Shown piece by piece: positions 6,243 to 23,386 of a DNA stretch of 64,000 bases (position 1 is its first letter; every line of letters begins with the position of its first letter). A program made the translations under genes and the position numbers. Source of the DNA: an uncultured Bacteriovoracaceae bacterium (GTDB taxonomy: Bacteria; Bdellovibrionota; Bacteriovoracia; Bacteriovoracales; Bacteriovoracaceae); assembly GCA_964012805.1 (NCBI GenBank), contig CAXGUD010000003.1:1-64000 (forward strand). The letters are read 5' to 3'. The notes beneath the pieces were generated by a model. The model saw only the letters and a list, made by a program, of their open reading frames with translations. It searched no databases and had not been told where the DNA came from.

Positions 6243-8240
6243 ATGGAAAAAAATTGCTTTAAACTCTCTTCTGAATATAAACCTTGTGGAGATCAGCCAA
6301 AGGCCATAGAAGAGTTAACTAATTTTTACTCTAATGGTGAGAATGAAAACATTCTATTAGGGGTAACAGGTTCTGGCAAAACCTTTACAACTGCCCATAT
6401 AATTCAAAAGCTTGGAAAAAAGACTCTTATTTTGGCCCACAATAAAACTCTTGCTGCACAGTTGTATGCTGAGTTTAAGTCTTTTTTTCCTGAAAATGCC
6501 GTGGAATATTTTGTTTCATACTACGATTACTATCAACCAGAAGCTTACGTTCCGGGTTCAGATGTTTATATAGAAAAAGATGCTTCTATAAATGATGAAA
6601 TTGATAAACTTAGGCATTCAACGACCAAAAGTCTTCTGACAAGAGATGATGTTATTGTTATTTCTAGCGTAAGTTGCATATACGGAATAGGTTCACCTTC
6701 AGAATATGACTCATTGAAAGCTACACTTTTCGTTGGGGATAATATCGATAGAGACGACTTTCTAAGAAAACTAGTAAGACTTCAATATGATAGAAATGAT
6801 ACGGATTTTTATAGAGGCTGTTTCCGCGTAAGAGGAGACCTTGTAGAAATCTTTCCTGCTAGTGAAGACAAAGAAGTTATTAGAATAGAGTTTTTTGATG
6901 ATGAAGTTGAAACTATCTCTATTGTTGACCCCCTTAGAGGACAGTGTCTTGAGCAATTGAAAAAAGTTACAATTTTTCCAAAGTCTCATTATGTCGTAAG
7001 TTCAAATAAAATGGAAAGAGCAATTGAATCTATTAAAGTTGAACTTAGAGAAAGACTAATAAAACTTGGTAAAGAGGAAAAGTTAGTTGAGAGACAACGT
7101 TTAGAACAGAGAACTTTGCTTGATTTAGAAATGATGGAAGAGCTTGGTTATTGCTCTGGTATAGAAAATTATTCTCGCCATCTTACGGGAAGAAGTCAGG
7201 GAGAGGCTCCCCCTACACTTATAGACTATTTTGGTACAGATTTTTTGCTAGTTATAGATGAATCTCATGTGACTGTTCCACAGGTTGGTGGGATGTTTAG
7301 AGGAGATAGGTCAAGAAAAGAAAACCTTGTTAATTATGGGTTTCGGTTACCAAGTGCTTTAGATAATAGACCTCTTACATTTGATGAATTTTTACTAAAA
7401 ATGAGAACTGTTCTTTATGTTTCTGCAACTCCTGGTGATTTTGAATTAAAAAGAACTTCAGGAGAATATATTGAACAAATAATTAGGCCGACAGGACTTC
7501 TTGACCCTGAAATTGAGATAAAAGATGCTAAAAACCAGGTGGAAGATCTTCTATTAGAAGCAAAAAGTGTAATCAAGAGAGGAGAGCGAGTTCTTGTTAC
7601 GGCGTTAACAAAAAGGTTAGCTGAAGAATTAACGAACTTCTATCAGTCGGTAGGTATGAAGGTTCGTTACTTACACTCAGATATTGATACTTTGGAAAGA
7701 GTTGAAATAATTAGAGATCTTAGGGCCGGTAAATTTGATATTTTGGTTGGAATTAACCTTCTAAGAGAGGGCTTGGATATTCCTGAAGTTTCTCTTGTTG
7801 GAATTTTAGATGCTGATAAAGAGGGATTTTTAAGGAGTGAGAGGTCACTTATTCAAACAATTGGAAGAGCAGCTAGAAACGATAAAGGAAGGGTGATTTT
7901 ATACGCCTATAAAAAAACCAAAAGTATTGAGAAGGCTTGTAGCGAAACAAAAAGGCGAAGGGATTTACAAGAAAAATATAATAAATCTAACGGGATTACG
8001 CCTCAAACAATTACTAAGCCTATTTCTGAAGGTGTTATTGAAGCTATTAGGGGAAGCAAAGGAAAGAAAGGAAAAATTGAAAAGAAACACCTTTCAAGTT
8101 TTGACCTTAAAACTTTGGAAAAAAGGATAAGTGAGCTTAGAGCAATGATGAAACAAGCAAGTAGAGAATTAAGATTTGAGGATGCTGCGAAAATTAGAGA
8201 CGAAATTAAAAGCTTATCTGAAGCGAGGCTTCTTCTTTAA
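6243..8240 (+). CDS. uvrB: Excinuclease ABC subunit B
   Basis: [23 protein letters not shown]-terminal UVR ([11 protein letters not shown]). Confidence 0.98.
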
Positions 8241-8695: not shown

Positions 8696-9830
8696 TTTTG
8701 AAAAAACGATTTTAGTTATTTCAGATATTCACCTGGGTGCGGGTGAAATGGTCAACGGAAAAAGAAACCTATTAGAGGACTTTCACTATGATAAGGAATT
8801 TATTGAGTTTCTGGATTATTACTCTACAGGACCATATGAAAAGAGAGAGGTAGAATTAATAATTAATGGAGATTTTTTAGATTTTTTAGCAGTCCCATTT
8901 GTGAATTATTTTGATGATGAATTTTGGAGTGAAGAAGCTGCCTTAGAAAAGTTAAAAATTATTTTGGATGCTCATAAAAATGTTATGGACTCTTTGAGCA
9001 AATTTATTTCAAAAGGTGATAAAAAATTAATCTATATTGTTGGAAATCATGATGGTGAATTCCTTTTTGAATCGATGAGGGATTACTTCATTAAACTTTT
9101 TCCTAAGACAGTCAGGAATAATATTTTATTTAGATTTGAAAAAGATGGTGAATATAGTCCTCATCCTGGGATCGTGATTAAGCATGGCCATGAATATGAA
9201 ATTCCTAACCAAATAGACCCTGAGGGATCAATTATAATCACCGAGGAAGGAAGGAAATATTTTCTTCCTCCATGGGGCTCTTACTATGTAACTAGAGTTA
9301 TAAATAAATTTAAAGAGGAAAGAGCTTATATTAACTTGGTTAGGCCAATAAAAAAGTTACTTATCAGTGGAATTATTTATGATACGTTGTTTACATTAAG
9401 ATTCATGTTGGCCAATATTTACTACATTTTTATGGTTCGTTTCATTCTTTACTTCAAATACAGTAAAAGTTTAAAAGAGATAATTGAAAATATGAAAAGA
9501 GAACTTAAAGTTTTCCAGGTCTCAGAAACAATTGTTGAGGATTTTTTTGAGGAAAGGAAGGATGTTGGTGTTCTTATAATGGGTCATACTCACTACCCAT
9601 CGATAACAACTTATTTTGATGGAGCCACTTTCATTAATACGGGTACTTGGGTAAAAATGAACTATTTAGACTTCGATAAACAGTCCCAAAATAATGACCT
9701 AACTTATGCAAAAATTAATATTAAAAGTATTAAAAAGAGTGGAAAGGTTAGAAGTAGAAACCTAAAGAATTTAGATATTCATTTTAATGTTTGGAAAGGG
9801 AAGAGTGAGAATCCTTTTAGAGGATTCTAG
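8673..9830 (+). CDS. Calcineurin-like metallophosphoesterase
   Basis: SDIH, GDFLD, GNHD, HGH, GHTH motifs; ATG at 8673. Confidence 0.85.
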   Translation: MISHTKSSFEKTILVISDIHLGAGEMVNGKRNLLEDFHYDKEFIEFLDYYSTGPYEKREVELIINGDFLDFLAVPFVNYFDDEFWSEEAALEKLKIILDAHKNVMDSLSKFISKGDKKLIYIVGNHDGEFLFESMRDYFIKLFPKTVRNNILFRFEKDGEYSPHPGIVIKHGHEYEIPNQIDPEGSIIITEEGRKYFLPPWGSYYVTRVINKFKEERAYINLVRPIKKLLISGIIYDTLFTLRFMLANIYYIFMVRFILYFKYSKSLKEIIENMKRELKVFQVSETIVEDFFEERKDVGVLIMGHTHYPSITTYFDGATFINTGTWVKMNYLDFDKQSQNNDLTYAKINIKSIKKSGKVRSRNLKNLDIHFNVWKGKSENPFRGF

Positions 9831-10333
9831 AACTCTGCATAACAAAGCTCCATGAACATTTTTCCATGAGCAGAGTTTATTGGTATCTCAACCACGGTCG
9901 TTCCAACTGGATACTTTATAGTGTGTTTAGGTCCCTCAATAATTGAAGGGATTGCCATGTTTGATGAGTATCCCATAACAGCGAGGTCTCTTTTGGCATT
10001 CCCCATGATCATGTTACAGATTTCTCCACCAACATCGGCTATGTCGTCATTGTACTCCTCATATGTTTCCATGAGCATAGCACTGGCTACTTTAAAGTAA
10101 GTTTCATAGGGCCAGGAGAGAACTAGCATCGCTCTATATTCGATGGTATCCCCTCCCTTAGTAAGTTCGCCACTAAGACCCAGGACTGATGAAACATCAC
10201 CATTTGAAACTTGACTCTTTTTTAACCCTGGTTTTTGAGGTTCCAGTTTGGTAAAGACCATGGTCTCAAAAACGTTTTTTGCCGCGTTAATAAAGGGTCT
10301 TGAAAACTCGATGAAATTTGTTGCACTGGCCAT
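9827..10333 (-). CDS. cheX: CheX-family phosphatase
   Basis: PFINAAKNVFETM, GEICNMIMGNAK (ExxN catalytic motif), MAIPSIIEG. Confidence 0.88.
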   Translation of the reverse strand: MASATNFIEFSRPFINAAKNVFETMVFTKLEPQKPGLKKSQVSNGDVSSVLGLSGELTKGGDTIEYRAMLVLSWPYETYFKVASAMLMETYEEYNDDIADVGGEICNMIMGNAKRDLAVMGYSSNMAIPSIIEGPKHTIKYPVGTTVVEIPINSAHGKMFMELCYAEF

Positions 10334-10350: not shown

Positions 10351-10869
10351 TTATAATCCTAAACTTGCCATTAAATCGTCAATCGATGATTGCGACATTT
10401 TCTTATTATTTTCGTACTTAACATCTGACTCTACGGAAGCTCTGTCGATATTCTGAAATTTATTTGAGAGCCATTTTAGCCTAGTCGCGAAGGCTTTAGT
10501 ACTTAAACCGTTTAAAGTTTTCGAATTACCTGACTGAAGTGATGTCACCATTCCTCTTAGTAAGTCTACTGCATCAAATAAAATGGCCACAACAACGTTT
10601 AGTAAGGGTAGATCCGTTGTTTGACTTGATTTATATCCTATCACTTTTCCAAGTTCACAGAATCTAGAAATTTCTTCCGCACCTATCGTTTGAGCCGATC
10701 CCATTACTCGATCGATAATTTGACCAAACTTCTCCAGTTCTTTCGCTCCAGATTCGTCTTCTTCAAGTTCTTCTTCAAGATCTTCAAGTATTTCTTCAAG
10801 TTCGTCAAATAGACCCGCAGCTTCCTTACAAAAGTCTTCTATTATCTCTGGGTCATCAATTAATTCCAT
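10351..10869 (-). CDS. Hpt-fold protein lacking the phospho-His, with a CheZ-like C-terminal peptide
   Basis: IIEDFCKEA..LFDELE start; DRVMGSA in place of HTLKGSA; ends SQSSIDDLMASLGL. Confidence 0.7.
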   Translation of the reverse strand: MELIDDPEIIEDFCKEAAGLFDELEEILEDLEEELEEDESGAKELEKFGQIIDRVMGSAQTIGAEEISRFCELGKVIGYKSSQTTDLPLLNVVVAILFDAVDLLRGMVTSLQSGNSKTLNGLSTKAFATRLKWLSNKFQNIDRASVESDVKYENNKKMSQSSIDDLMASLGL

Positions 10870-10891: not shown

Positions 10892-11290
10892 TCATGAATT
10901 AAAAATCTTATCAATCTTCTCTTTTAAAACCTGTGCAGAGAAAGGCTTTACAATAAAGTTACTTACCCCGGCTTTAACAGCAATAACAACATTTCCTTGT
11001 TCTGCTTCGGCAGTAATCATTAGGAAAGGTGTTTTTTTAAATTCGTCAGTTGCTCTCATTTTTTTCAATAGGTCTAGCCCGCTCATTTTGGGCATATTCC
11101 AGTCCGACAAAATAAATTCGTATGGAACTCCTTCCTTATTTGCTTTTTCAATAAGAGGCCATGCTGTGGAGCCGTCATCAGCTTGAGTTATATTAGTGAA
11201 GCCGATCTGTCCGAGCATATTTTTGATGATTTTTCTCATGGTCGCCATGTCATCAACGACGAGAATTTTCATATCTGCTTTTAGGCCCAT
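10892..11290 (-). CDS. cheY: CheY response regulator
   Basis: ILVVDDMATMRKII, SDWNMPKMSG, MITAEA, IVKPF; single domain. Confidence 0.92.
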   Translation of the reverse strand: MGLKADMKILVVDDMATMRKIIKNMLGQIGFTNITQADDGSTAWPLIEKANKEGVPYEFILSDWNMPKMSGLDLLKKMRATDEFKKTPFLMITAEAEQGNVVIAVKAGVSNFIVKPFSAQVLKEKIDKIFNS

Positions 11291-11324: not shown

Positions 11325-12335
11325 CTAGTAAGAATTTTTTAAGAGTTGATTTATTGTATCGCCAAATTCAAATTCAAGTCCAGGTGTAAAATTTTTATCT
11401 TGTATTTTTTTTATTACTAAATCCAATGGGTATTCTTTTTCATCAATTTTTCCTGTCGAAAAATCAAATATATGAGATGTTAAACCTAATATTAATGAAA
11501 GTGGATCAATTGAGTGTCCTAGTTTACTATTAGGGTAACCACTACCATCATACCTTTCGTGATGATCAAGAATAATATTTAGCGCTCTTTTACTTATTTC
11601 CAGTCCACTTTTTTTAATCAAATGTTGTGCTAGCCCCATATGTTTTTTAAATAGATGCTTTTCATCCTGACCAAGCTTTAAATAAGGTTTATGGTTAATA
11701 CTCTTATTTATTTGCGTAATGCCAATATTATGAAGAAATGAGGCACAAATAATTTCAGAGAGTGTTTGCTCATCTTCAAAATTGAGTAGTTTAGACAAGA
11801 AATAGGAAAAAGATACGATTCTGTTTGTAGTATTATCTTCACCTAAGAGCATCTTACAAAAGTAAACAGCTAAGCTGACAGTGTGGCTTTTTTTTGGGCT
11901 GAAACAAAGCACTTCCTTTCTGACTTGCTCAATAACTTCTGAAAAATCATCTTTTGAGATACATAACTTAATTTTACTAGGGAAATCAAATGATGATGAA
12001 TCCTCCATGGCCAATTTATATTTTTCTTGTTCTATTTCCATGGGATGTGGAGGAGGCTTTTTTAAGCTTGGAACCTCATCTTTCATTAATTGTTGAGCCC
12101 TGAGAAAAGTTCTTTGTTGTTTTACTAAAACAGCTAATTTCCCACCCCTATCAAGAATAAAATTTAAGAAAGATTTTTTTTCATCTGAAAGGGGACTATT
12201 AGCAAATAGAAAAGTGTTAAATTTTTTATTTTGAGGATTGAAAATATATAAGTGAAAAGAGAATAAAGTCTTTTCTTTTAGATGCTCTTCTTCAATAATA
12301 AAAAAGTCACTTTTTGTTTTCATATTTTTAACCAA
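11325..12335 (-). CDS. Degenerate HD-GYP domain protein
   Basis: HHERYDGSGYP present; LHNIG replaces LHDIG; true start may be ATG at 12323. Confidence 0.8.
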   Translation of the reverse strand: MVKNMKTKSDFFIIEEEHLKEKTLFSFHLYIFNPQNKKFNTFLFANSPLSDEKKSFLNFILDRGGKLAVLVKQQRTFLRAQQLMKDEVPSLKKPPPHPMEIEQEKYKLAMEDSSSFDFPSKIKLCISKDDFSEVIEQVRKEVLCFSPKKSHTVSLAVYFCKMLLGEDNTTNRIVSFSYFLSKLLNFEDEQTLSEIICASFLHNIGITQINKSINHKPYLKLGQDEKHLFKKHMGLAQHLIKKSGLEISKRALNIILDHHERYDGSGYPNSKLGHSIDPLSLILGLTSHIFDFSTGKIDEKEYPLDLVIKKIQDKNFTPGLEFEFGDTINQLLKNSY

Positions 12336-15015
12336 ATAAGCTTTTGAAGAAACCTTTAACTTTTTCTATAACTTTTTGGATTGCTCCGGAATTTTCTATC
12401 CTCGTTTTATCTAAAAAATCTTCATTGCTTGAAAAATCTAAAAATACACCTCTAGCTGATTCCATAAAAACTTCAATTTTTTTTGAGTTTGTTTCATCAA
12501 CACCATTATTAAAAATGCCAATGGTAAAACCTAGTCTATTTGGACCATCAAAATATGGATAATAAAAAATATTTTCTTGATTTAGAAACTTAGGATCTTT
12601 CCATGTTGGTAATTGTGTCTCTTTCCAAGTTTTTATATTTTCTCTTTTTATTTCCAGCCACAACTCATTTCTTACTGGGTCTGGGTTTTCTTTTTCGACA
12701 AAAGAGTTAAATATTTCAAAGAAATTACTTTTTCTATTATCGTATATGAAAAAGATGAGGTGAGCCTGAATTTCTGAATCAGTTACTTTTGAAATGTAAT
12801 CTAATATTTGATCTTCATCGACCTCTGGATCTTCATAAAGTTTCAATAAATTAATTATATACTCTAAGCCTTTTGAGTCTGCTGGAATTACAGGTTTATC
12901 ATTATCTTCATCTTCATCTTTAGTTATGCTTTTATCTTGGTCATTATTATCTTCATCATCTTTTTTTTCTTCATATTTACTATCTGTAAACTCTTTATGA
13001 ATTTTTCCATAATCAATTGTTTGTTCACCAGAGTCTCTTCTATTTAGAGAAATAGTTTGATTCTCTTCTTTTTTATTTGTAGAAAAATTGTCGTAACTAT
13101 TATCTTTTTTGGTGATTAGACCTTCCCAATCCGCTTCAACTTCTTTTTTCTCTTTCTTTTTCTTTTCTTTAAAATTAAAAGATGAGGCATTGTTATAATA
13201 TTCATCTTTTGCTTCATCTACCTCTATTTCTACTTTGCTCTCTGAAAGCTTTTCACCTGATTCTACATTGACATCAACACTTTTATTATCTAGTGAATGC
13301 TCAGAATCCAAATCTATATCATTATTTAATTCATCCTTCTTACTTCCCTCATCAACTAATCCCTCAAGTTCATTTGATGTCTCAAGTTTATTGTCCTCAT
13401 CTTCAATGTTTAAATCCGAATCGAGATTATTTTCTTTGTCGTCTAATTTTAATGAATCATCCTGAGAATCTATTTTTTCATAAGACCCCTGCTCATCCTC
13501 ACTATTATTAGCTTGATTCATCGTTTCGTCTGAATCAGTACTTATATCTAAGTTATCTTTATCTTCTCCATCTATACTATTAGAATCTATTTCTAAATTA
13601 TCATCCTCATTCGATGATTGTTGAGAGCTACCTTCTGCTATATTTAGACCTTCAGAGTCAGAAAGCTTCGAAACATTATCATCTTCATCTAAGCCTTTAA
13701 GGGAATGAGAATCTTGTTCGTCAATATTTAATTCTTTATTTTGATTTTCATCAAATTGACTGGAGGAATCTTCTATATTGAGGTTATCCTCCTCTGATGA
13801 AAGAAGAGAGTTTTCATTGCTAGACTCAAAGTCATCATCTTTTTGATTCGTTAAATTTGAGTCGACTAAATCTAAACCACTTTGGAGGCTACTTTCTAAA
13901 GGATCATCTGATTCTTCAATATCCAAATCTTTTTCTGATTTTAAACTTTCATTTTCAAGTTCGTCACTTTTTAGAGGGTCATCTGATTCATCTAAGTCAG
14001 CTTCATCTATAAAGTTATCCAGTTCTTTATCAAGTGAACTTATATCTTGGTTATCATCAAGGCTAAAACCAGTACTTTCTGAGCCGATACTATTATTACC
14101 TTCATCAATATTTAGATCCATATCTTTAGAGCTATCTTTTTTTTGGCTTGACTCTTCAATATTAAGACCTTGAGAAGATTCCAATAATTTGGTGTTATCA
14201 CTATCATCAATAAGGTTGTTTCCTTGTGTATCAGGCAATCCTTTGTCATCTATATCTAAATCAAATAGTGAATCTGGGCTTTTATCACTTGACCCTGATT
14301 CAATATCTAAGTCAAAGTTATTCCTCGAAGAATCACTGTTTCCTTGCTCTATTTCTAAGTCTGTTTTTCTTTTAGGTTCTTCATTTTCATTTTCGACATC
14401 TAGGAGAAGATTTCCTTCATTTGAAGATTTACTATTATCACTAGAACTTGGAGCTATTTGAAGTTCTGTTTGTTGAGTAGCTTTGGAAGAGTCCGGCTCA
14501 TCATTTTCATCCATTAAAAAAAGAGATTTTACTTGGGTACTTTCTGATTCATCTTTTTCTTCTATGTCTTGAATAAGAGATTCAACCTTTTGAATACTTT
14601 TTTCTTCTTTTTCCTCTTCCATTTTCATAGCGGGGAGAGATTTAATCAAAAACTTTACTTTATAAACTAATGACTTTGGAACGACGGGCTCGCAAAGAAA
14701 TTCTGTTAAACCTATTTTTTGAAACTTCTGAATGGTATTTCTTGGAAGATCCTTAGGAGATAAAAGAAGAACCTTTGATTTAAGCTTTTTAATTGCTTTC
14801 CTGTTTATTTGAAGGAGAGTAGAACAGAGTTTGGGATGGGAAATAAGTGTTATTGAAGCGCCAACAGTCTGGATTAATTGATTGGCTTCGTTTAGATCTT
14901 CACATTCATATATTTCTATTCCATCCTCATGGCTAGTCTCATTTATAACTTCCCTTAACTTTTGAAGGGAGGGAGATAAAGGGTTTACGAAAATTAAAGG
15001 TTTAGGCATATCCAT
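12328..15015 (-). CDS. Pseudo-receiver domain + long acidic low-complexity region + C-terminal globular domain
   Basis: REC-like N-terminus (VLLLSP..GLTEFLCEPV) without the Asp/Lys residues; long D/E/S/N-rich centre. Confidence 0.75.
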   Translation of the reverse strand: MDMPKPLIFVNPLSPSLQKLREVINETSHEDGIEIYECEDLNEANQLIQTVGASITLISHPKLCSTLLQINRKAIKKLKSKVLLLSPKDLPRNTIQKFQKIGLTEFLCEPVVPKSLVYKVKFLIKSLPAMKMEEEKEEKSIQKVESLIQDIEEKDESESTQVKSLFLMDENDEPDSSKATQQTELQIAPSSSDNSKSSNEGNLLLDVENENEEPKRKTDLEIEQGNSDSSRNNFDLDIESGSSDKSPDSLFDLDIDDKGLPDTQGNNLIDDSDNTKLLESSQGLNIEESSQKKDSSKDMDLNIDEGNNSIGSESTGFSLDDNQDISSLDKELDNFIDEADLDESDDPLKSDELENESLKSEKDLDIEESDDPLESSLQSGLDLVDSNLTNQKDDDFESSNENSLLSSEEDNLNIEDSSSQFDENQNKELNIDEQDSHSLKGLDEDDNVSKLSDSEGLNIAEGSSQQSSNEDDNLEIDSNSIDGEDKDNLDISTDSDETMNQANNSEDEQGSYEKIDSQDDSLKLDDKENNLDSDLNIEDEDNKLETSNELEGLVDEGSKKDELNNDIDLDSEHSLDNKSVDVNVESGEKLSESKVEIEVDEAKDEYYNNASSFNFKEKKKKEKKEVEADWEGLITKKDNSYDNFSTNKKEENQTISLNRRDSGEQTIDYGKIHKEFTDSKYEEKKDDEDNNDQDKSITKDEDEDNDKPVIPADSKGLEYIINLLKLYEDPEVDEDQILDYISKVTDSEIQAHLIFFIYDNRKSNFFEIFNSFVEKENPDPVRNELWLEIKRENIKTWKETQLPTWKDPKFLNQENIFYYPYFDGPNRLGFTIGIFNNGVDETNSKKIEVFMESARGVFLDFSSNEDFLDKTRIENSGAIQKVIEKVKGFFKSLFG

Positions 15016-15618: not shown

Positions 15619-18600
15619 ATGTCAAACATGGTTAAAAAATCGTCGGTTGCAACTAAGATGATATTTACAATTATTATTGTAACTCTTTTTGTTGCAGCAA
15701 TAGCCTCAGCCATAATTCTTAGTCAAGACTATGAAAAATATCTAAAAAGAGTAGAGCAGACGATGGAAGAAGCTAAGGAAAGCTTTATGAAACCATTGTC
15801 TGTTGCCCTTTACTCTGAAGATGAAGACCAGGTTAATAATGCCCTAAACGGTATATTAAAATTAGAAGGGTTAGTAGAGGTAAGAATTGTAAACGTTGGG
15901 GAGAAAGATCCTTCATTCTCAGCGGTCACTAGCAAGAAAGGTGGGAAATACAAAAAAATGAAGGCAGCGGAAAGGCGGTCCTTAGGCCCATCTAGAGAAA
16001 TAAAAATTATTCACGTAGACCCAGACGACCCTGATTCAAAGGGTGAGCAGATTGCTACAATGTTTCTGAACTCTACTAAGGAAGTCGCCAGAGATAAAAT
16101 TATAAACCAAATTCAAAAATTTGGGATTGTTCAATTATCACAAGTTGTTGTTTTGGCAATAGCGATTTTTCTCATATTTAGAAGTCTAGTAGCTAGACAT
16201 CTAAGGTCCATGGCCCAATTTGCTCAGGCGATGGATCTTAATGACTTGTCAGGTCCAGGTTTGACATTGGCCCGGAAAAGACCGGATTCAAATGATGAAC
16301 TTCAAGATCTAACGGACTCATTCAACGAAATGAGGGATAATCTAAAAAAGGCGCATGCAGAGTTAAAAGATTATGCCGAAAATTTAGAAGATAAAGTTAA
16401 GGCGGCAACAAAGGAAATAGAAGAAGAAAAGCAAAAAGTTGCAAACCTTCTTAATAATATGAAGCAAGCTATTTTTTCAATAAACTCAGAAGGAATAATT
16501 GTTGGTCCTGTGTCTGCTTTTTCTAAGGTTGTGTTTGATGGAGATGTCGAAGGCAATAATGTTTATGATACTCTTTACAAAGATATGGATACTCATGGTG
16601 AGGAATATGCGACTTTAAAAACATCAATGTTGTCTGTTTTTGGTGAGGATGATCTCCAGTATGATCTTATGGAAGATAATTTTCCGAATAGGATTGAATT
16701 TAAAGCAGGAAAAGAATCTAATAAAAAAGAAGATAACTCAGATCCAGAGATGGTGGTTGAAGAAGAAGAGGATGTCAGAATACTTTCTGTTAATTACAAC
16801 CCTATGTGGGATTCAAGCGACTGTTTAGAGCAATTAATGATTGTTGTCGAAGATATTACTGAGAAAGAAAAGTTAGAGGCAGAAGTTGCTAAACAGAAAA
16901 AAGAAAGTGAAAAAAATATATCTATAATAACTGAAATGGCAAATGCAGACCTTGAAGATATTTCAACTTTTCTAAAAAGTTCTCCTGAACTTGTTCAAAG
17001 TACTATGGATTTATCAAGAGTCGCTCATGAAAATACAGCGGTCCTTGGAGAAATGTTTAGGCATTTACATACTTTGAAGGGGAATGCCAGGGCCTTTAAT
17101 TTTAATTCGATTTCTAGTTTGACCCACGTTGCTGAAACAATCGTCACCACAATAAGAGAAAAAAAATCTAGCGGGGAGAATGTAACTAAAGAATTATTTA
17201 CACCTTTGATTTCCAAGCTTTACGATATTAACTCTGAGATTAATGATTATGGAGCATTGGCCAAGAAAGTTTTTAGAATTGAAAATGAGTTCGAAAACAA
17301 GCTAATTAGTGATATTCAAAGCTTCACAATAACTCTCGATCATTTGATATCGAAAAATATAACTTCAAAAGAGGCAGACTTTGATTTAAATCAACCTAAA
17401 GAAAAGCGAGAAAATGCATTTAATAGCTTCAAGGAAAATGATGGTATTTCGAAGGAAAACCTAAATCGTATTAAACGCTCGGCTCATTCGATAAAAGGTG
17501 CTTTGAGATCAATGAATGCACCTGAAATATCAGAAATGGTTCATAGGTTAGAAAGTGAAATTATTAAGTTTGATGACTTTAATCAATTTGACTTGGACAC
17601 TTTTACAAAAGACTTTATTTCGCCTTATGCAGATATTAAGGATAGGATAAAGTCTATTTACTCAAACTCTGATTTAAACAATCCATATACAAATGAATCA
17701 GCGGATTGGATAAATATATTTTTAGGAATCTTCCAATTATCTTCTGATTTGAATACTTTGGGAGCAGATGAAATTTTCCAAATAGAAGAAAAAGTCGAAA
17801 AAATACTCACAGAAACAAAGAGTCTAAAATTAGCATTTTTAACTAAAATGTCATCAGAGCTTTTTGGTTTAATTAAAATGGGAGCTGAAAAGCTAAGTGA
17901 TAATAAAAAGCCTATTAATTCAATTCTAAGGGAAATGTGGATTTATATATCTTTAGTTTCTAGGGCAAATTTGTCAAGAATAGAGGGCAGTTCAGAAAAA
18001 GAGAAGCTTATTAAAGTGGTAAGGAATCTACAGGATGATATAGATCTTGCTAGAGAGTCCCTAGATAATGCGAATGTAAGAGGTTCTATTCTACTTTCAA
18101 CATTGAGGCATATAGGAAGGATAGGTATAAATCCAAAAGATTTCTTTAAGGAAGCTAAAACTTGTTTAGGTAAAGACTCAGTTGAAGATTACTTCCTTTT
18201 TAAAGAAGATGCAGTAACTGACTTAAAATTTATTACGGCTGATTTAAAAACAACAAATATGGTGGATCTTCCAAAAGGAACAATTGAGTTAGCTGAAAAG
18301 GGAGACCCTTTGGCAGAAATGCTAAAAATATCTTTAGACGAAGATCCTCATTACAGATACCTAAAAATTATGGACTTCTCCCAATTATTGAGAGGTTTTA
18401 ATGAGGTCGTTGAGGATCAAGAGGAAGATACTGGTAAAAAAGTAAATACATTTCCTGTTGTTGCAAGAAATTATAATAGGTTGAAAGAAATTATAAGAAA
18501 TCATTCAAATGAAGAGATTTCCCAGGCTTTTAATCGGTTACTTGACGTTCCAATAATTCCATCATTAGCGAAGTATAAAACTATGGTTAACGACATTTCA

Positions 18601-19104
18601 ACAAAACTTAATAAGTCAGTTGATTATAGGGTCTCTGGTGGTGAAGTAACTATGAATAAAGATTCTTTTTACCTTTTTCAGGACGCCTTCGTTCATATCC
18701 TAAGGAATTCATTGGATCATGGAATTGAAAACCCAAGCGAGAGAGAGGAAAAAGGGAAAAACAAAAAGGGTATAATTCATATAGACTGTAATGAAATAGA
18801 CCCCGAAAATATTGAGATTAAGATTTCAGATGATGGAAAAGGAATTAATGCTGAAATTATAGCAAAGAAAGCTATCGAGAAAGGTATTCATACTGAAAAT
18901 GAAATTAATGGAATGTCTAAAGAAGATATAATAAAGCTGATATTTGTGCCGAGCTTTTCTCAAAAAGAGTCTGTAGATGAACTATCCGGCAGAGGTGTTG
19001 GTATGGATATCGTTGAAAAAAATATGAAAAAGTTAGGTGGGGATATCGATATAGAGACTGAAGTAGGGAAGGGTACTACATTCACTTTAAAAATTAAATC
19101 ATAA
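15619..19104 (+). CDS. Membrane CheA-like kinase: TM-periplasmic-TM-HAMP-PAS-like-Hpt-Hpt-HATPase, no CheW domain
   Basis: Two TM helices; DELQDLTDSFNEM; HTLKGNA and HSIKGAL; HILRNSLDHGIE, DDGKG, SGRGVGMD; stops at GTTFTLKIKS. Confidence 0.88.
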   Translation: MSNMVKKSSVATKMIFTIIIVTLFVAAIASAIILSQDYEKYLKRVEQTMEEAKESFMKPLSVALYSEDEDQVNNALNGILKLEGLVEVRIVNVGEKDPSFSAVTSKKGGKYKKMKAAERRSLGPSREIKIIHVDPDDPDSKGEQIATMFLNSTKEVARDKIINQIQKFGIVQLSQVVVLAIAIFLIFRSLVARHLRSMAQFAQAMDLNDLSGPGLTLARKRPDSNDELQDLTDSFNEMRDNLKKAHAELKDYAENLEDKVKAATKEIEEEKQKVANLLNNMKQAIFSINSEGIIVGPVSAFSKVVFDGDVEGNNVYDTLYKDMDTHGEEYATLKTSMLSVFGEDDLQYDLMEDNFPNRIEFKAGKESNKKEDNSDPEMVVEEEEDVRILSVNYNPMWDSSDCLEQLMIVVEDITEKEKLEAEVAKQKKESEKNISIITEMANADLEDISTFLKSSPELVQSTMDLSRVAHENTAVLGEMFRHLHTLKGNARAFNFNSISSLTHVAETIVTTIREKKSSGENVTKELFTPLISKLYDINSEINDYGALAKKVFRIENEFENKLISDIQSFTITLDHLISKNITSKEADFDLNQPKEKRENAFNSFKENDGISKENLNRIKRSAHSIKGALRSMNAPEISEMVHRLESEIIKFDDFNQFDLDTFTKDFISPYADIKDRIKSIYSNSDLNNPYTNESADWINIFLGIFQLSSDLNTLGADEIFQIEEKVEKILTETKSLKLAFLTKMSSELFGLIKMGAEKLSDNKKPINSILREMWIYISLVSRANLSRIEGSSEKEKLIKVVRNLQDDIDLARESLDNANVRGSILLSTLRHIGRIGINPKDFFKEAKTCLGKDSVEDYFLFKEDAVTDLKFITADLKTTNMVDLPKGTIELAEKGDPLAEMLKISLDEDPHYRYLKIMDFSQLLRGFNEVVEDQEEDTGKKVNTFPVVARNYNRLKEIIRNHSNEEISQAFNRLLDVPIIPSLAKYKTMVNDISTKLNKSVDYRVSGGEVTMNKDSFYLFQDAFVHILRNSLDHGIENPSEREEKGKNKKGIIHIDCNEIDPENIEIKISDDGKGINAEIIAKKAIEKGIHTENEINGMSKEDIIKLIFVPSFSQKESVDELSGRGVGMDIVEKNMKKLGGDIDIETEVGKGTTFTLKIKS

Positions 19105-20222: not shown

Positions 20223-20798
20223 ATGTCAGAAGAAATTATGGAAAGTTCTCTTGCCAAATTGAAAGAGCTTGTGCGCCAAGTTTCAATTACTAGGTTTAAG
20301 CAGTCTGCTCAAAATGATGAATACAACCTCTTAGAGGTTCCAAAAAGCTCTGAAAAGACCGTTTTTGATCATTGGATGTCCCTAATATTAATATCGGGTA
20401 AGAGTCTCAGAATAACCTTCAAGACTCATTTCAATATAAAAACTTGTCGTAAGATAGCTTCTCCCATTTACGGAAAAAAGCCCGACGATATTGCTGTAAG
20501 GCAGGCTCAGGATTTCGTTAAGGAATATGGTAACTTATCAGCAGGCTTTTTGAAAAAAATATTTGAAGAACAAGATGTAGATGTTGGGATTAGTCTTCCT
20601 CTTGTCATTAGAGGATTTGATGAAGTCTTTTTCGATAAAAGCGAAGATGAGTCTAAGTTAGAGGATTGTTGGAGACTTGACAACGGATCAACAAGCCTTG
20701 TTTGTACGTCTCTTCTTGAGGTTTACCAACCTGAAGTTATACAGGAATTGGATTTTACTATTGAAGAGGAAGAAGAAGAGGAGATAGATTTCTTATGA
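20223..20798 (+). CDS. CheX-like protein, copy 1
   Basis: DFVKEYGNLSAG (ExxN), GISLP; tail EEEEEEEIDFL. Confidence 0.75.
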   Translation: MSEEIMESSLAKLKELVRQVSITRFKQSAQNDEYNLLEVPKSSEKTVFDHWMSLILISGKSLRITFKTHFNIKTCRKIASPIYGKKPDDIAVRQAQDFVKEYGNLSAGFLKKIFEEQDVDVGISLPLVIRGFDEVFFDKSEDESKLEDCWRLDNGSTSLVCTSLLEVYQPEVIQELDFTIEEEEEEEIDFL

Positions 20799-23386
20799 GC
20801 AATATCAATCAGGACCTCCAGGCCACACATAAGATTTTAACAATTATTGAGCAATCAAAATCTAATAATGATGAACTTTTAGATCATCTTCCGGGAATTT
20901 TCTGCATCATAGATGAAGAAGCTAAAATCCTTCGAGGTAACCTAGAGTTATCTAATATTTTCAATATAGATCTAGAAGATTTAATTGAAAAAGACTTTAG
21001 TACAATTTTTTCTAAAGAGATCTGGAAGATTTTTAAAGGGAAAATAGATGCTCTTGATGGAAAAAGTGATGAACTTCAGTTTGAACTAGAAATCCATAAA
21101 GAAGGAGACGATGAAAGTAAATCCTTTTATTGGTATATTTCAAACTTTTCAAGTGGCAAGGAAAATAAGAAGAAATTTTATAGTATTGTTGGTGAAGATA
21201 TTTCCGAGCTAAGGAAAAAAGAAAAGCAGTTAATGGAAATTTTCTCTAGTATACCTCTAGGAATTTTAACTATAGGACCTAATAAAAAAATAGAACCACA
21301 ATATTCACAATTCACTGAGTACCTCCTAGATAATAAAGAGTTACAAGGAAAAGATTTAGAAAGTACTATTTTTAAAGAGACATTGGAAGATTGTGAGCCT
21401 GAGGTAAGGGAAGGAGTTAATAATATTATTGGCTCAATTGGAGAAAATGATCTAATTTTCGAATCATTGAAATCAACATTTCCTTCTAAAATTTGGTATC
21501 CAATAAAAGATAATTTAGATGGTGGAAGATGGATCGGTTTAACTTATCAACCCGTTGTATACAGTGGAGTAGTTAAAAGAATACTTGTCATTTGCGAAGA
21601 TAGAACTAAGATCATTCAAAGCGAAGAAGCCTTAAAAGATTCCCAAATGCTTGAAGACAAAAGTATAGCTAGAATTCTTCAAATCAAAAAGTCGGATCAG
21701 AGTATGCTCCCTCTTTTCATGAAGGAAATTGAGGAATTAGTTTCTCGATTATCGGCCCTTCATAAAGAGGAAGATTCTAAAGAGATTTGTAATGTACTCC
21801 ATGGTGTAAAGGGTAATGCTAGGGTTGCTGGATTTGATTTTTTGACTTCGTTAAGTCATGAGCTTGAAACCTATGTATTAGATAAAAATAAATCTGAAAA
21901 TGAATCAAAGTGGAAAGATATTGGTGATAGGGTTCATGACATAAAAGAGGAATGGAAAGAAATTAACTCTCTGTATAGATCACTTTCTCCATCAGATGGT
22001 GACCAAGCTGATAATGAAAAGGTAGACTCCGATGTTGCTGAGCTATTTGAGCGGTATAGCAAGATGCTTAATGAATCTAGCTTTTCAGAAGATCCCATTA
22101 AAACAGAAAGAATGATGCTTGCAATAAAGAGTATAAATTTCTCATCTATAGATGATTTGAATGAGACTATCTTACATAAGGCTGAAAAAACCGCAGAAAA
22201 ACTAAGTAAAAAAGTTGAAGTAAAGTTTGATTGGAACTCTATAATTCTCGAAGATTATACTAAGTCTTCTCTTAGCGAATCTCTTTTACATCTTGTGACC
22301 AATGCTATCAGTCATGGGGTGGAGGCTCCTGATAAAAGAACTCAGTTAGGCAAAAAAGAAGTTGGCCAAATTAACATCAAGGCCAGAGAAAAAGACGGTA
22401 TGATCTTTCTTGATGTTCACGATGATGGGGCAGGTATTTCTTTTAGTTCGATAGTTCGTACTGCAGTTAAACGTAAGATTATCACTTTAGAAAAAGTTAC
22501 CCAAATAAGTAGGTCAGAATTATTGAAATTAGTTTTTGAGCCAGGCTTTTCTACAGCTCAAGAGCTAACCGAAATATCTGGTCGTGGTGTTGGAATGGAT
22601 GTTGTTGCGGAAAGAGTGAAAGAACTTGGTGGTGACATAACTCTTGATACCAAAGAGGGAAAAGGTACTCGGTTTAGCATGAGTATGAGGACTGGAAAAA
22701 AGACTGAAGTTAATCGGAATGTTGTTTCCCTATCCAGGTTCAAAAATTTACTTGAAAAGAATATCCAATCTCTTGGAAAAGAGAAAAGTGTCGAATTAGA
22801 TTTCGAAAAAAGTGGAGATGCAACTTTGTCAAAAGGGATGATCTTTTGTGATATGCCTAGATTGACACTTGCAGTGACAACATATTTGGGATCATATTTA
22901 AAAGAAGGGGGATCTTACAAGCTCCATTCTTTCAGGGAAGGTAATCAATTTAACATCCATGTTCAATGTATAAAAGAAGGTGATGATCAAAGTAAATGGG
23001 CAGAGTTTTCAAAACCACTCTCTTTTTGCCTTGATTATTTAAAAAAACACGGTGGAAATGTTAGTATTACGAGTGAAAAAATGGAGATATCTTTTGGCCA
23101 TATTTTAGGTAAAACAGATATTCCTGATCTTCATGTGGCTTTTGAAAAAGGAATTTCTGAAGACGATGCTAAAATTACGGTTGAAAGAATTTTGAGTATT
23201 AAAGATGAACTAGATCTGTCGCTTGAAATAGATCTAAAACCTGATAGATATACTAATCTTCTTGTAGTTTCAAATCCTTCAGAATCTAAAGACTTATCCT
23301 TAACTCTTGGAGCATCCAAAGCAAGTCTTCAAAAGGAGTTAAGGAAAAAAGTTGAGTCAATCGTTTCGGCAATTGATAGGTTCTAA
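20795..23386 (+). CDS. Cytoplasmic CheA-like kinase: PAS-PAS-like-Hpt-HATPase plus C-terminal extension, copy 1
   Basis: LHGVKGNARV, HLVTNAISHG, DDGAG, FEPGFST, SGRGVGMDVV; ATGA overlap with the upstream gene. Confidence 0.88.
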   Translation: MSNINQDLQATHKILTIIEQSKSNNDELLDHLPGIFCIIDEEAKILRGNLELSNIFNIDLEDLIEKDFSTIFSKEIWKIFKGKIDALDGKSDELQFELEIHKEGDDESKSFYWYISNFSSGKENKKKFYSIVGEDISELRKKEKQLMEIFSSIPLGILTIGPNKKIEPQYSQFTEYLLDNKELQGKDLESTIFKETLEDCEPEVREGVNNIIGSIGENDLIFESLKSTFPSKIWYPIKDNLDGGRWIGLTYQPVVYSGVVKRILVICEDRTKIIQSEEALKDSQMLEDKSIARILQIKKSDQSMLPLFMKEIEELVSRLSALHKEEDSKEICNVLHGVKGNARVAGFDFLTSLSHELETYVLDKNKSENESKWKDIGDRVHDIKEEWKEINSLYRSLSPSDGDQADNEKVDSDVAELFERYSKMLNESSFSEDPIKTERMMLAIKSINFSSIDDLNETILHKAEKTAEKLSKKVEVKFDWNSIILEDYTKSSLSESLLHLVTNAISHGVEAPDKRTQLGKKEVGQINIKAREKDGMIFLDVHDDGAGISFSSIVRTAVKRKIITLEKVTQISRSELLKLVFEPGFSTAQELTEISGRGVGMDVVAERVKELGGDITLDTKEGKGTRFSMSMRTGKKTEVNRNVVSLSRFKNLLEKNIQSLGKEKSVELDFEKSGDATLSKGMIFCDMPRLTLAVTTYLGSYLKEGGSYKLHSFREGNQFNIHVQCIKEGDDQSKWAEFSKPLSFCLDYLKKHGGNVSITSEKMEISFGHILGKTDIPDLHVAFEKGISEDDAKITVERILSIKDELDLSLEIDLKPDRYTNLLVVSNPSESKDLSLTLGASKASLQKELRKKVESIVSAIDRF

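Follow-up and report, generated by a model that had tools for sequence, protein, structure and literature searches.

A histidine-less CheA P1-like protein with a CheZ-type tail, a possible CheY-P phosphatase family of predatory Bdellovibrio-type bacteria

Gene X and its locus

Gene X lies on the minus strand of the window (the whole 64,000-nucleotide stretch of DNA that was analyzed), in a same-strand run in which an HD-domain gene comes before cheY, 22 bp separate cheY from gene X, and 17 bp separate gene X from cheX. The four genes are:

11325..12335, minus strand: HD-domain (HD-GYP-like) gene upstream of cheY, identified by its HD domain, start codon uncertain
10892..11290, minus strand: cheY, 132 aa, the predicted target of X, identified by Response_reg and by CheY as its best NCBIfam match
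10351..10869, minus strand: gene X (Bd1818 family), 172 aa plus stop, encoding a His-less CheA P1-like protein with a CheZ-type tail
9827..10333, minus strand: cheX, 168 aa, with an intact ExxN motif, identified by Pfam CheX

The position of gene X between cheY and cheX, as given in an earlier sequence-only reading of this DNA, is borne out by the shared strand and by the Pfam/NCBIfam identification of both neighbors. The neighboring CheY keeps the equivalents of E. coli D12, D13, D57, N59, T87, E89, K109, K119, and K122. The cheY-X-cheX order is intact in all 30 of the closest loci, and the HD-domain gene is present in 29 of 30 close loci. We considered this HD-domain gene as an orthologue of Bd1817 and rejected it, as the alignment of the two is confined to 114 columns, all within the HD domain; the Bd1817-like gene of the source genome sits on another contig than gene X. 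Control of gene X by sigma-28 is not supported either: of 54 loci, 5 have a CCGA(T/A)A box in the 150 nt upstream, compared with 7.6 on average in the background.

An 895-aa protein (12328-15015, minus strand), receiver-like at its N-terminus and acidic over a long middle part, apparently heads the HD-cheY-X-cheX run, and has no Pfam or NCBIfam family over cut-off. Large sensor kinases combining Hpt and CheA-type HATPase domains without CheW, together with the CheX-like genes and single receivers that they adjoin, are found in the window (15619-19104, 20223-20798, and 20795-23386, all plus strand) and genome-wide; the kinases resemble the "HKIII" class and could be phosphodonors for the neighboring CheY. 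In the source genome, a CheA query matches 78 ORFs, including many long Hpt-HATPase kinases, and 14 ORFs match the CheX-like protein encoded there.

Residues 48 to 63 of X read FGQIIDRVMGSAQTIG and its C-terminal end is MSQSSIDDLMASLGL. Pfam Hpt (PF01627) matches residues 20 to 72 at 24.9 bits against a cut-off of 24.6, and matches only 20 of 63 Bd1818-family members at E ≤ 0.01. The NCBIfam search of X returned no family. X passes the Bd1818-family profile as well as the motifs (Q/N)xxDR(I/V)MG and KxxxY, and its 120 closest homologues are mostly 164 to 177 aa long with the same ends. A frameshift, a fragment, or a split CheA was considered and rejected, as the homologues mostly agree in length and in their ends, and a P1 detached from a bipartite CheA would still have the His. 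Longer forms are limited to five pseudo-receiver fusions in the 8000 candidates that were scored, a result of little weight regarding fusions, and a few more among the representatives (the best 150 of 582 clusters, with less than 50% identity between clusters). Two degenerate paralogues of X are fused as well, one of 350 aa with a receiver-like N-terminus (G000:C7:30304-31356, minus strand; L090) and one of 439 aa placed behind another domain (G000:C54:19956-21275, plus strand); both have lost most of the D-R-x-M-G motif.

The claim that the protein has no His at all is right for X, whose 172 residues include none, and does not extend to the family, as 70 of 121 close homologues (the query and the 120 closest) carry a His somewhere in the sequence. 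At position 53 itself, His is found in 0 of the 150 representatives.

Database names for the family are "hypothetical," "Hpt domain protein," or, wrongly, CheA, and the ESM Atlas matches of X are "hypothetical" clusters only, with Hpt on 20% of members in one of them. An ESM Atlas cluster of 61 members (about 142 aa, mostly Campylobacterota, feature score 0.90) carries Hpt on 43%. In the literature searched, whose coverage leaves out most subscription journals, we found neither a description of the family nor, in main texts, the name "Bd1818." The Bd1818 family is a real, conserved signaling protein family of predatory Bdellovibrio-type bacteria.

Predicted fold

10435..10857, minus strand: predicted five-helix bundle, residues ~5-145, CheA P1-like including helix E (AlphaFold2)

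The AlphaFold2 model of X (76 sequences, mean pLDDT 84, pTM 0.81) is composed of helices at residues 7-36, 42-62, 65-81, 87-112, and 125-145, followed by a last helix at 163-169. In a VIA-align comparison of this model with 48,161 chains, the top four structural matches are CheA P1 domains (1TQG, Z = 16.0; 1I5N, 15.1; 2LP4, 15.1; 3KYJ, 15.0), with designed helical bundles close behind at Z = 14.8. The rmsd to 1TQG is 1.9 Å over 104 aligned residues, and the range over 1TQG, 1I5N, and 3KYJ is 1.9 to 2.6 Å for 104 to 129 residues. Foldseek places the same CheA P1 entries first, none of them at E ≤ 0.001 (best 0.0097, a CheA P1). When a profile of 63 family members was searched against the PDB, one designed protein took the first rank and CheA P1 chains were the best natural matches (E = 2e-6 to 2e-4). 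Structures of CheZ, CheX, Rap, and Spo0E are not among the fold-search matches listed, which does not exclude them.

Sequence and structure prediction agree, and the modeled fold of X appears to be CheA-P1-derived including helix E. The proposed Hpt scaffold is hence retained in a more specific form, that of the predicted five-helix CheA P1 fold (Z = 15-16), with Pfam Hpt just over its cut-off.

The altered phosphotransfer site

10681..10728, minus strand: degenerate Hpt signature F48-G63 (Q50, D53, R54, M56, G57), from alignment to CheA P1
10711..10713, minus strand: Asp53 codon at the CheA His48 position; Asp in 149/150 representatives
10645..10647, minus strand: Lys75 codon at the CheA Glu70 position; Lys in 148 and Arg in 2 of 150 representatives

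Alignment of X with E. coli CheA P1 pairs D53 with His48, M56 with Lys51, G57 with Gly52, Q50 with Arg45, E72 with His67, and K75 with Glu70, and the register is unchanged against the PDB chains 2LD6 and 1TQG. The replacements of His by Asp and of Lys by Met that had been read from the Hpt-like pattern are confirmed by this alignment. With the phosphorylatable His and its Lys and Glu/Gln partners replaced by D53, M56, and K75, X is not a functional Hpt. CheA Glu70 is, we assume, the hydrogen-bond partner of the phospho-His; if so, the His:Glu pair would have been swapped for Asp:Lys in X.

The D53-R54-M56-G57 residues are kept in 120 to 121 of 121 sequences (the query and the 120 closest homologues). 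Among the best 150 of 582 clusters, R54 and G57 are each found in 144, M56 in 142, Y79 in 136, F13 and E16 in 145 each, R130 in 148 of 148, and an acid at position 99 in all 150. Position 50 is less strict: 105 of the 150 have Q, 25 have N, and 20 have a non-amide residue, and 15 of these 20 keep the CheZ-like tail. The constrained core is accordingly D53/K75/R54, with the amide at position 50 secondary. Within the pattern Q..DR..G, D53, R54, and G57 are near-invariant and Q50 is not. The most constrained surface residues cluster at the former phosphotransfer site, which looks re-tooled rather than decaying.

The suggestion that the Q..D pair mimics the catalytic Asp/Gln of CheZ is weakened: the order is reversed, position 50 is a non-amide in 20 of the 150 representatives, and a Q-to-N change abolishes RapH activity according to the available text of PMC3035606. 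The pair E46-x-x-x-Q50 has the CheZ spacing; among the best 150 of 582 clusters, no more than 89 have both the acid and the amide.

An acid exactly at the phospho-acceptor position, with the basic residues K75 and R54 conserved nearby, might itself be phosphorylated by CheY-P, through an Asp-to-Asp transfer that serves as covalent hydrolysis intermediate or relay step. We consider this highly improbable, as the side chain of Asp does not reach as far as that of His and would meet repulsion in the acidic CheY pocket, no receiver-like metal-binding acid cluster is evident, and we found no precedent. The His-less Hpt domains of ChpA were also not phosphorylated in vitro, as stated in the part of PMC10782961 that was available.

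The C-terminal tail

10399..10434, minus strand: variable low-confidence linker, residues ~146-157 (pLDDT <50 over residues 144-160)
10354..10398, minus strand: CheZ-type C-terminal amphipathic peptide, residues 158-172 (AlphaFold2 helix 163-169)

The CheZ C-terminal and FliM N-terminal peptides bind activated CheY. With a position-weight matrix derived from 84 family tails, the E. coli CheZ C-terminus reaches 29.0 bits, E. coli FliM 19.0, and the FliM of the source genome, which has the classic N-terminal peptide, 17.0. Among the 4134 genome ORFs of at least 100 aa, only X scores above the CheZ C-terminus, the next ORF reaching 22.4 bits, and the earlier description of the tail as CheZ-type is upheld. 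Together with the Pfam Hpt score and the conserved D53-R54-M56-G57 residues, this result places the pattern beyond coincidence. The tail alone gave no match to PDB sequences at E ≤ 10, the query being too short to inform. The ORF with the second-best tail score (G000:C18:63480-64358, plus strand) encodes a 292-aa protein that ends CheZ-like and, judged by eye, has a cyclic-nucleotide-binding look.

Conservation of the tail depends on the depth of the comparison. Q160, I163, and D164 are each kept in 120 of 121 sequences (the query and the 120 closest homologues), whereas among the best 150 of 582 clusters, some of whose records are fragments, the strict tail pattern is found in only 85 and a looser one in 103; the tail is lost or decayed in a large minority of the family. 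The distance from Trp133 to the tail varies from 18 to 82 residues (median 26, 72 measurable representatives). A tail-less paralogous subfamily of about 145 aa (L068, L075, L077, L078, and L079), in which D-R-I-Y-G replaces D-R-I-M-G, occurs as a second copy distant from che genes.

The existence of tail-less members would agree with a role as kinase decoy, in which a His-less copy of P1 enters the ATP-binding domain of CheA or Hpt-HATPase kinases and damps autophosphorylation, as would the full predicted five-helix P1 fold with its conserved F13 and E16, and the many Hpt-HATPase kinases among the CheA-matching ORFs of the source genome. This role is nevertheless very unlikely, for it leaves the CheZ-like tail, the D53/K75 swap, and the cheY-cheX position unexplained, and gene X seldom adjoins cheA in the loci examined.

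Model of the complex with CheY

Modeling of X in complex with its adjacent CheY and Mg gave weak support, with a score of 0.54 (runs 0.54, 0.54, and 0.60) against 0.26 for the best control. The runs agree in at least 89% of contacts, and the pLDDT of the partners is at least 74. The mark applied is reached by 116 of 157 solved complexes and by 2 of 215 mismatched pairs; at scores of 0.60 or lower it is reached by only 18 solved complexes and by both mismatches, and these counts are roughly applicable to the X-CheY job. The pass may reflect likeness to solved complexes of P1 with CheY or of the CheZ peptide with CheY. The pairing of X with its neighbor, which the sequence-only reading proposed to model, is in line with this result, and X probably binds CheY in some form.

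Distribution and co-occurrence

The genome searches covered Bdellovibrionota, in which the family profile matches 150 of 401 genomes at E ≤ 1e-12, or 140 of 337 when the count is restricted to good-quality genomes; the representative search gave 309 clusters at E ≤ 1e-10, with no taxa given. FliM is present in 148 of the 150 X-positive genomes, compared with 346 of 401 overall. Co-occurrence was examined in a panel of 80 genomes from two families, made up of all 45 X-negative and 35 of the 108 X-positive genomes. CheW is found in 33/35 X-positive vs 21/45 X-negative panel genomes, and the CheY clade in 33/35 vs 14/45 at E ≤ 1e-44 and 35/35 vs 26/45 at 1e-25. The Bd1817 type is found in 32/35 vs 7/45 at E ≤ 1e-27; this threshold and the 1e-44 for the CheY clade were chosen once the scores were known, and related genomes do not count as independent. 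CheZ is over cut-off in 0 of 81 genomes, that is, the 80 of the panel and the source genome. The source genome (100% complete) has one CheW-bearing kinase, no CheC match, and no MCP match, thus no detectable chemoreceptor.

The panel places X in a CheY/Bd1817 module and cannot single out its partner, because losses follow physical linkage. In genus g54, seven X-negative genomes are without the adjacent Bd1817 orthologue and five of them keep CheY; in genus g8, six X-negative genomes have lost the adjacent CheY type and kept an unlinked Bd1817-like gene.

In 59 diverged loci, chosen from the family matches to span scores and families and including some paralogues, cheY lies within 300 bp of gene X in 7 and anywhere in the fetched locus in 14. 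Outside the close relatives, the commonest neighbor across the phylum is not cheY or cheX but a Bd1817-type HD-GYP gene (300-340 aa, the family of PDB 3TM8), found on the opposite strand within 300 bp in 39 of the 59. All four genes occur together in several loci from different families.

This neighborhood raises the possibility that X works with the degenerate HD-GYP protein of Bd1817 type, or connects it to CheX/CheY, providing a cyclic-nucleotide link in the growth phase. The co-occurrence of the Bd1817 type with X is tighter than that of CheW or the CheY clade. The tail might bind the peptide cleft of the N-terminal domain of Bd1817, in which a peptide was bound in one crystal form, and the transcripts of Bd1817 likewise peak late inside prey, both according to the available portion of PMC3188283. 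Against this, the losses in g54 and g8 follow physical linkage, shared promoter DNA between head-to-head starts about 30 bp apart can alone preserve that linkage, the Bd1817-like gene of the source genome lies on a separate contig, and the tail of X is CheZ-like. We regard a role of this kind, or one as an adaptor, as quite unlikely.

The Bdellovibrio bacteriovorus member

In B. bacteriovorus s4 (L116), X comes after an HD gene of 308 aa and is followed by an inserted gene, queG, the gene for poly(A) polymerase, one of 218 aa, another HD gene, cheX, cheY, and a LuxR-like gene, with the starts of X and the first HD gene head to head about 30 bp apart. Because this order and the gene sizes match Bd1817 to Bd1826 of HD100, the HD100 member of the X family is, by synteny and gene size, Bd1818. 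The LuxR-type gene (L116:14629-15024, plus strand) is divergent from cheY, and its HD100 counterpart, Bd1826, stands at 7092 RPKM in the growth phase.

In the available part of PMC3627812 (Table S1), Bd1818 mRNA rises from 3.3 RPKM in the attack phase to 904 in the growth phase. The latter value is far above those of the neighbors Bd1817 (26) and Bd1819 (67), so that the signal is not read-through. The same table gives attack vs growth values of 109 vs 44 RPKM for cheY and 98 vs 32 for cheX; both are called attack-phase-specific there, the difference for cheY not being significant after correction. At the protein level, Bd1818 was detected with seven unique peptides, its level being at a minimum in the attack phase and peaking at 5-7 h (log2 fold change +0.67), and CheY, CheX, and Bd1817 dip at 3-4 h, unlike Bd1818, as far as the accessible data of PMC12546842 go. 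The available text of PMC3188283 describes a deletion of Bd1817 without detected phenotype. None of the Bd tags searched is present in the Tn-seq supplements of PMC6561027. The Bd1818 protein is real and regulated, and its timing does not match that of a simple attack-phase substitute for CheZ.

Proposed function

The reading that we favor, at somewhat less than an even chance, is that X is a tethered CheY-P phosphatase built on a P1 scaffold and using Asp53. The tail would bind the FliM/CheZ-binding face of activated CheY, the flexible tether would hold CheY, and the bundle would dock on the CheY active site as P1 does in phosphotransfer. D53, at the in-line position, would orient a water molecule in the receiver pocket, the shorter Asp in place of His leaving room for the attacking water. 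In Bacteriovorax-like genomes X would act alongside CheX, from within the cheY operon; in Bdellovibrio most of it would be produced within the prey, where CheY-P would be kept low in a non-motile cell. P1 is described to dock on CheY through helices A and B (PMC2817712, in the part available). Auxiliary phosphatases are described to act by orienting a water molecule in the pocket of the receiver. An acid can take this part, given that RapH Q47E retains full activity and that Spo0E is suggested to use one; the Q-to-N change that abolishes RapH activity does so alone (PMC3035606, in the part available).

Several lines of evidence favor a phosphatase. The predicted P1 fold is a known CheY-docking module, the D53/K75/R54/M56/G57 residues are constrained, the tail is CheZ-like and tethered, and cheY, X, and cheX are linked. 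FliM accompanies X almost throughout, and neither CheZ nor CheC was found in the source genome. The weak X-CheY model, RapH Q47E, and the precedent of a CheA3 region in R. sphaeroides point the same way.

Other observations argue against it. An amide stands at position 50 in 130 of 150 representatives, short of the invariance of the catalytic amides in CheZ, CheX, and Rap, and the adjacent CheX with its intact ExxN already offers a phosphatase. The strict tail is limited to 85 of 150 representatives and a cheY within 300 bp to 7 of 59 diverged loci. The source genome is without detectable chemoreceptor, and many genomes have CheY and CheW without X, as seen for CheW in 21 of the 45 X-negative panel genomes. 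The growth-phase mRNA of Bd1818, together with the opposite lean of cheY and cheX, argues against a CheZ-like role in attack-phase chemotaxis.

Some of these observations would suit a non-catalytic inhibitor or sequestrator of CheY, the tail of which competes with FliM while the acidic P1 face, as a dead-end mimic of phospho-P1, blocks both kinase and motor. The fold, the tail, and the weak complex model are shared with the phosphatase reading, a variable amide suits binding better than catalysis, CheX is already present as phosphatase, and the strong growth-phase transcription of Bd1818 suits a stoichiometric inhibitor. The plant pseudo-HPt AHP6 is an inhibitor. Catalytically dead RapH still blocks phosphotransfer, as the available text of PMC3035606 has it. 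However, the near-invariance of D53 and K75 is stricter than a binding surface usually needs, and the long tether with a P1-type docking face would resemble an enzyme that recaptures its substrate; we judge sequestration to be unlikely.

Taken more broadly, and only as a tentative proposal with a chance appreciably short of even, the Bd1818 family may be a further class of response-regulator phosphatase, derived from a phosphodonor domain by the change of His:Glu to Asp:Lys and the gain of a CheZ-type tether, silencing CheY-P inside prey and possibly coupled to Bd1817. If true, this class would be separate from CheZ, CheC/CheX, Rap, Spo0E, and the histidine kinases, a phosphotransfer domain would have been made into a phosphatase by a two-residue charge swap, and a catalytic role would be suggested for His-less Hpt domains elsewhere, for example in R. 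sphaeroides CheA3. A function for Bd1817, for which the deletion is reported without detected phenotype (PMC3188283, available portion), could follow. X is small and soluble, and Bd1818, detected as both mRNA and protein, is a tractable member, which makes the questions of His-less Hpt domains and of the missing CheZ directly testable.

Comparison with known systems

X resembles CheA P1 (PF01627; 1TQG, 1I5N, 2LP4, 3KYJ) in the predicted five-helix fold with helix E, in the register of the signature helix, and in F13, E16, and G57. It differs in having Asp for His48, Met for Lys51, and Lys for Glu70, and in being a stand-alone protein without kinase core, in which a CheZ-type tail replaces the P2 domain.

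With E. coli CheZ (PF04344), X would share an amphipathic C-terminal peptide on a flexible linker, as predicted from sequence and model, as well as an acid-amide pair spaced by one turn on the helix presumed to be catalytic. In CheZ, however, the acid comes first and the amide follows at +4 (D143/Q147), whereas in X the amide lies three residues before the acid (Q50/D53); the predicted fold of X is P1-like and its amide is not invariant. PF04344 does not match X at E ≤ 1 and matches 1 of 63 family members (E = 7e-4); Pfam CheX/CheC matches neither X nor any of the 63.

Spo0E (SQELD) likewise has an amide three residues before an essential-looking Asp, the motif being taken from the available text of 10.1101/2023.03.28.534590. 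Spo0E proteins, however, are two-helix proteins of 40-100 aa that act on Spo0A, whereas X has 172 aa and five predicted helices. The Ser before the amide is rare in the X family (G/A/S in 94/41/13 of the best 150 of 582 clusters), and the Q-x-x-D spacing may be a coincidence. As only this spacing agrees, X is not a member of Spo0E.

Free-standing proteins with an HPt fold and without the phospho-His are found in plants (AHP6 type), where they are thought to damp the phosphorelay; these are eukaryotic, without a CheZ-type tail, and not CheA-P1-derived. His-less Hpt domains in chemosensory proteins are a further likeness, occurring inside P. aeruginosa ChpA and R. sphaeroides CheA3, where the available text of PMC10782961 states their role as undetermined. 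A region of CheA3 has CheY6-P phosphatase activity (PMC2817712, in the part available), and the same region contains two of the His-less Hpt domains (PMC10782961, in the part available). These domains lie within large kinases, and the sources, as far as available, do not assign the activity of CheA3 to them; X, in contrast, stands alone as a protein and combines a conserved Asp/Lys site with a CheZ tail. X thus stands outside functional Hpt, CheZ, CheC/CheX, and Spo0E, yet it plausibly works in a CheZ-like manner.
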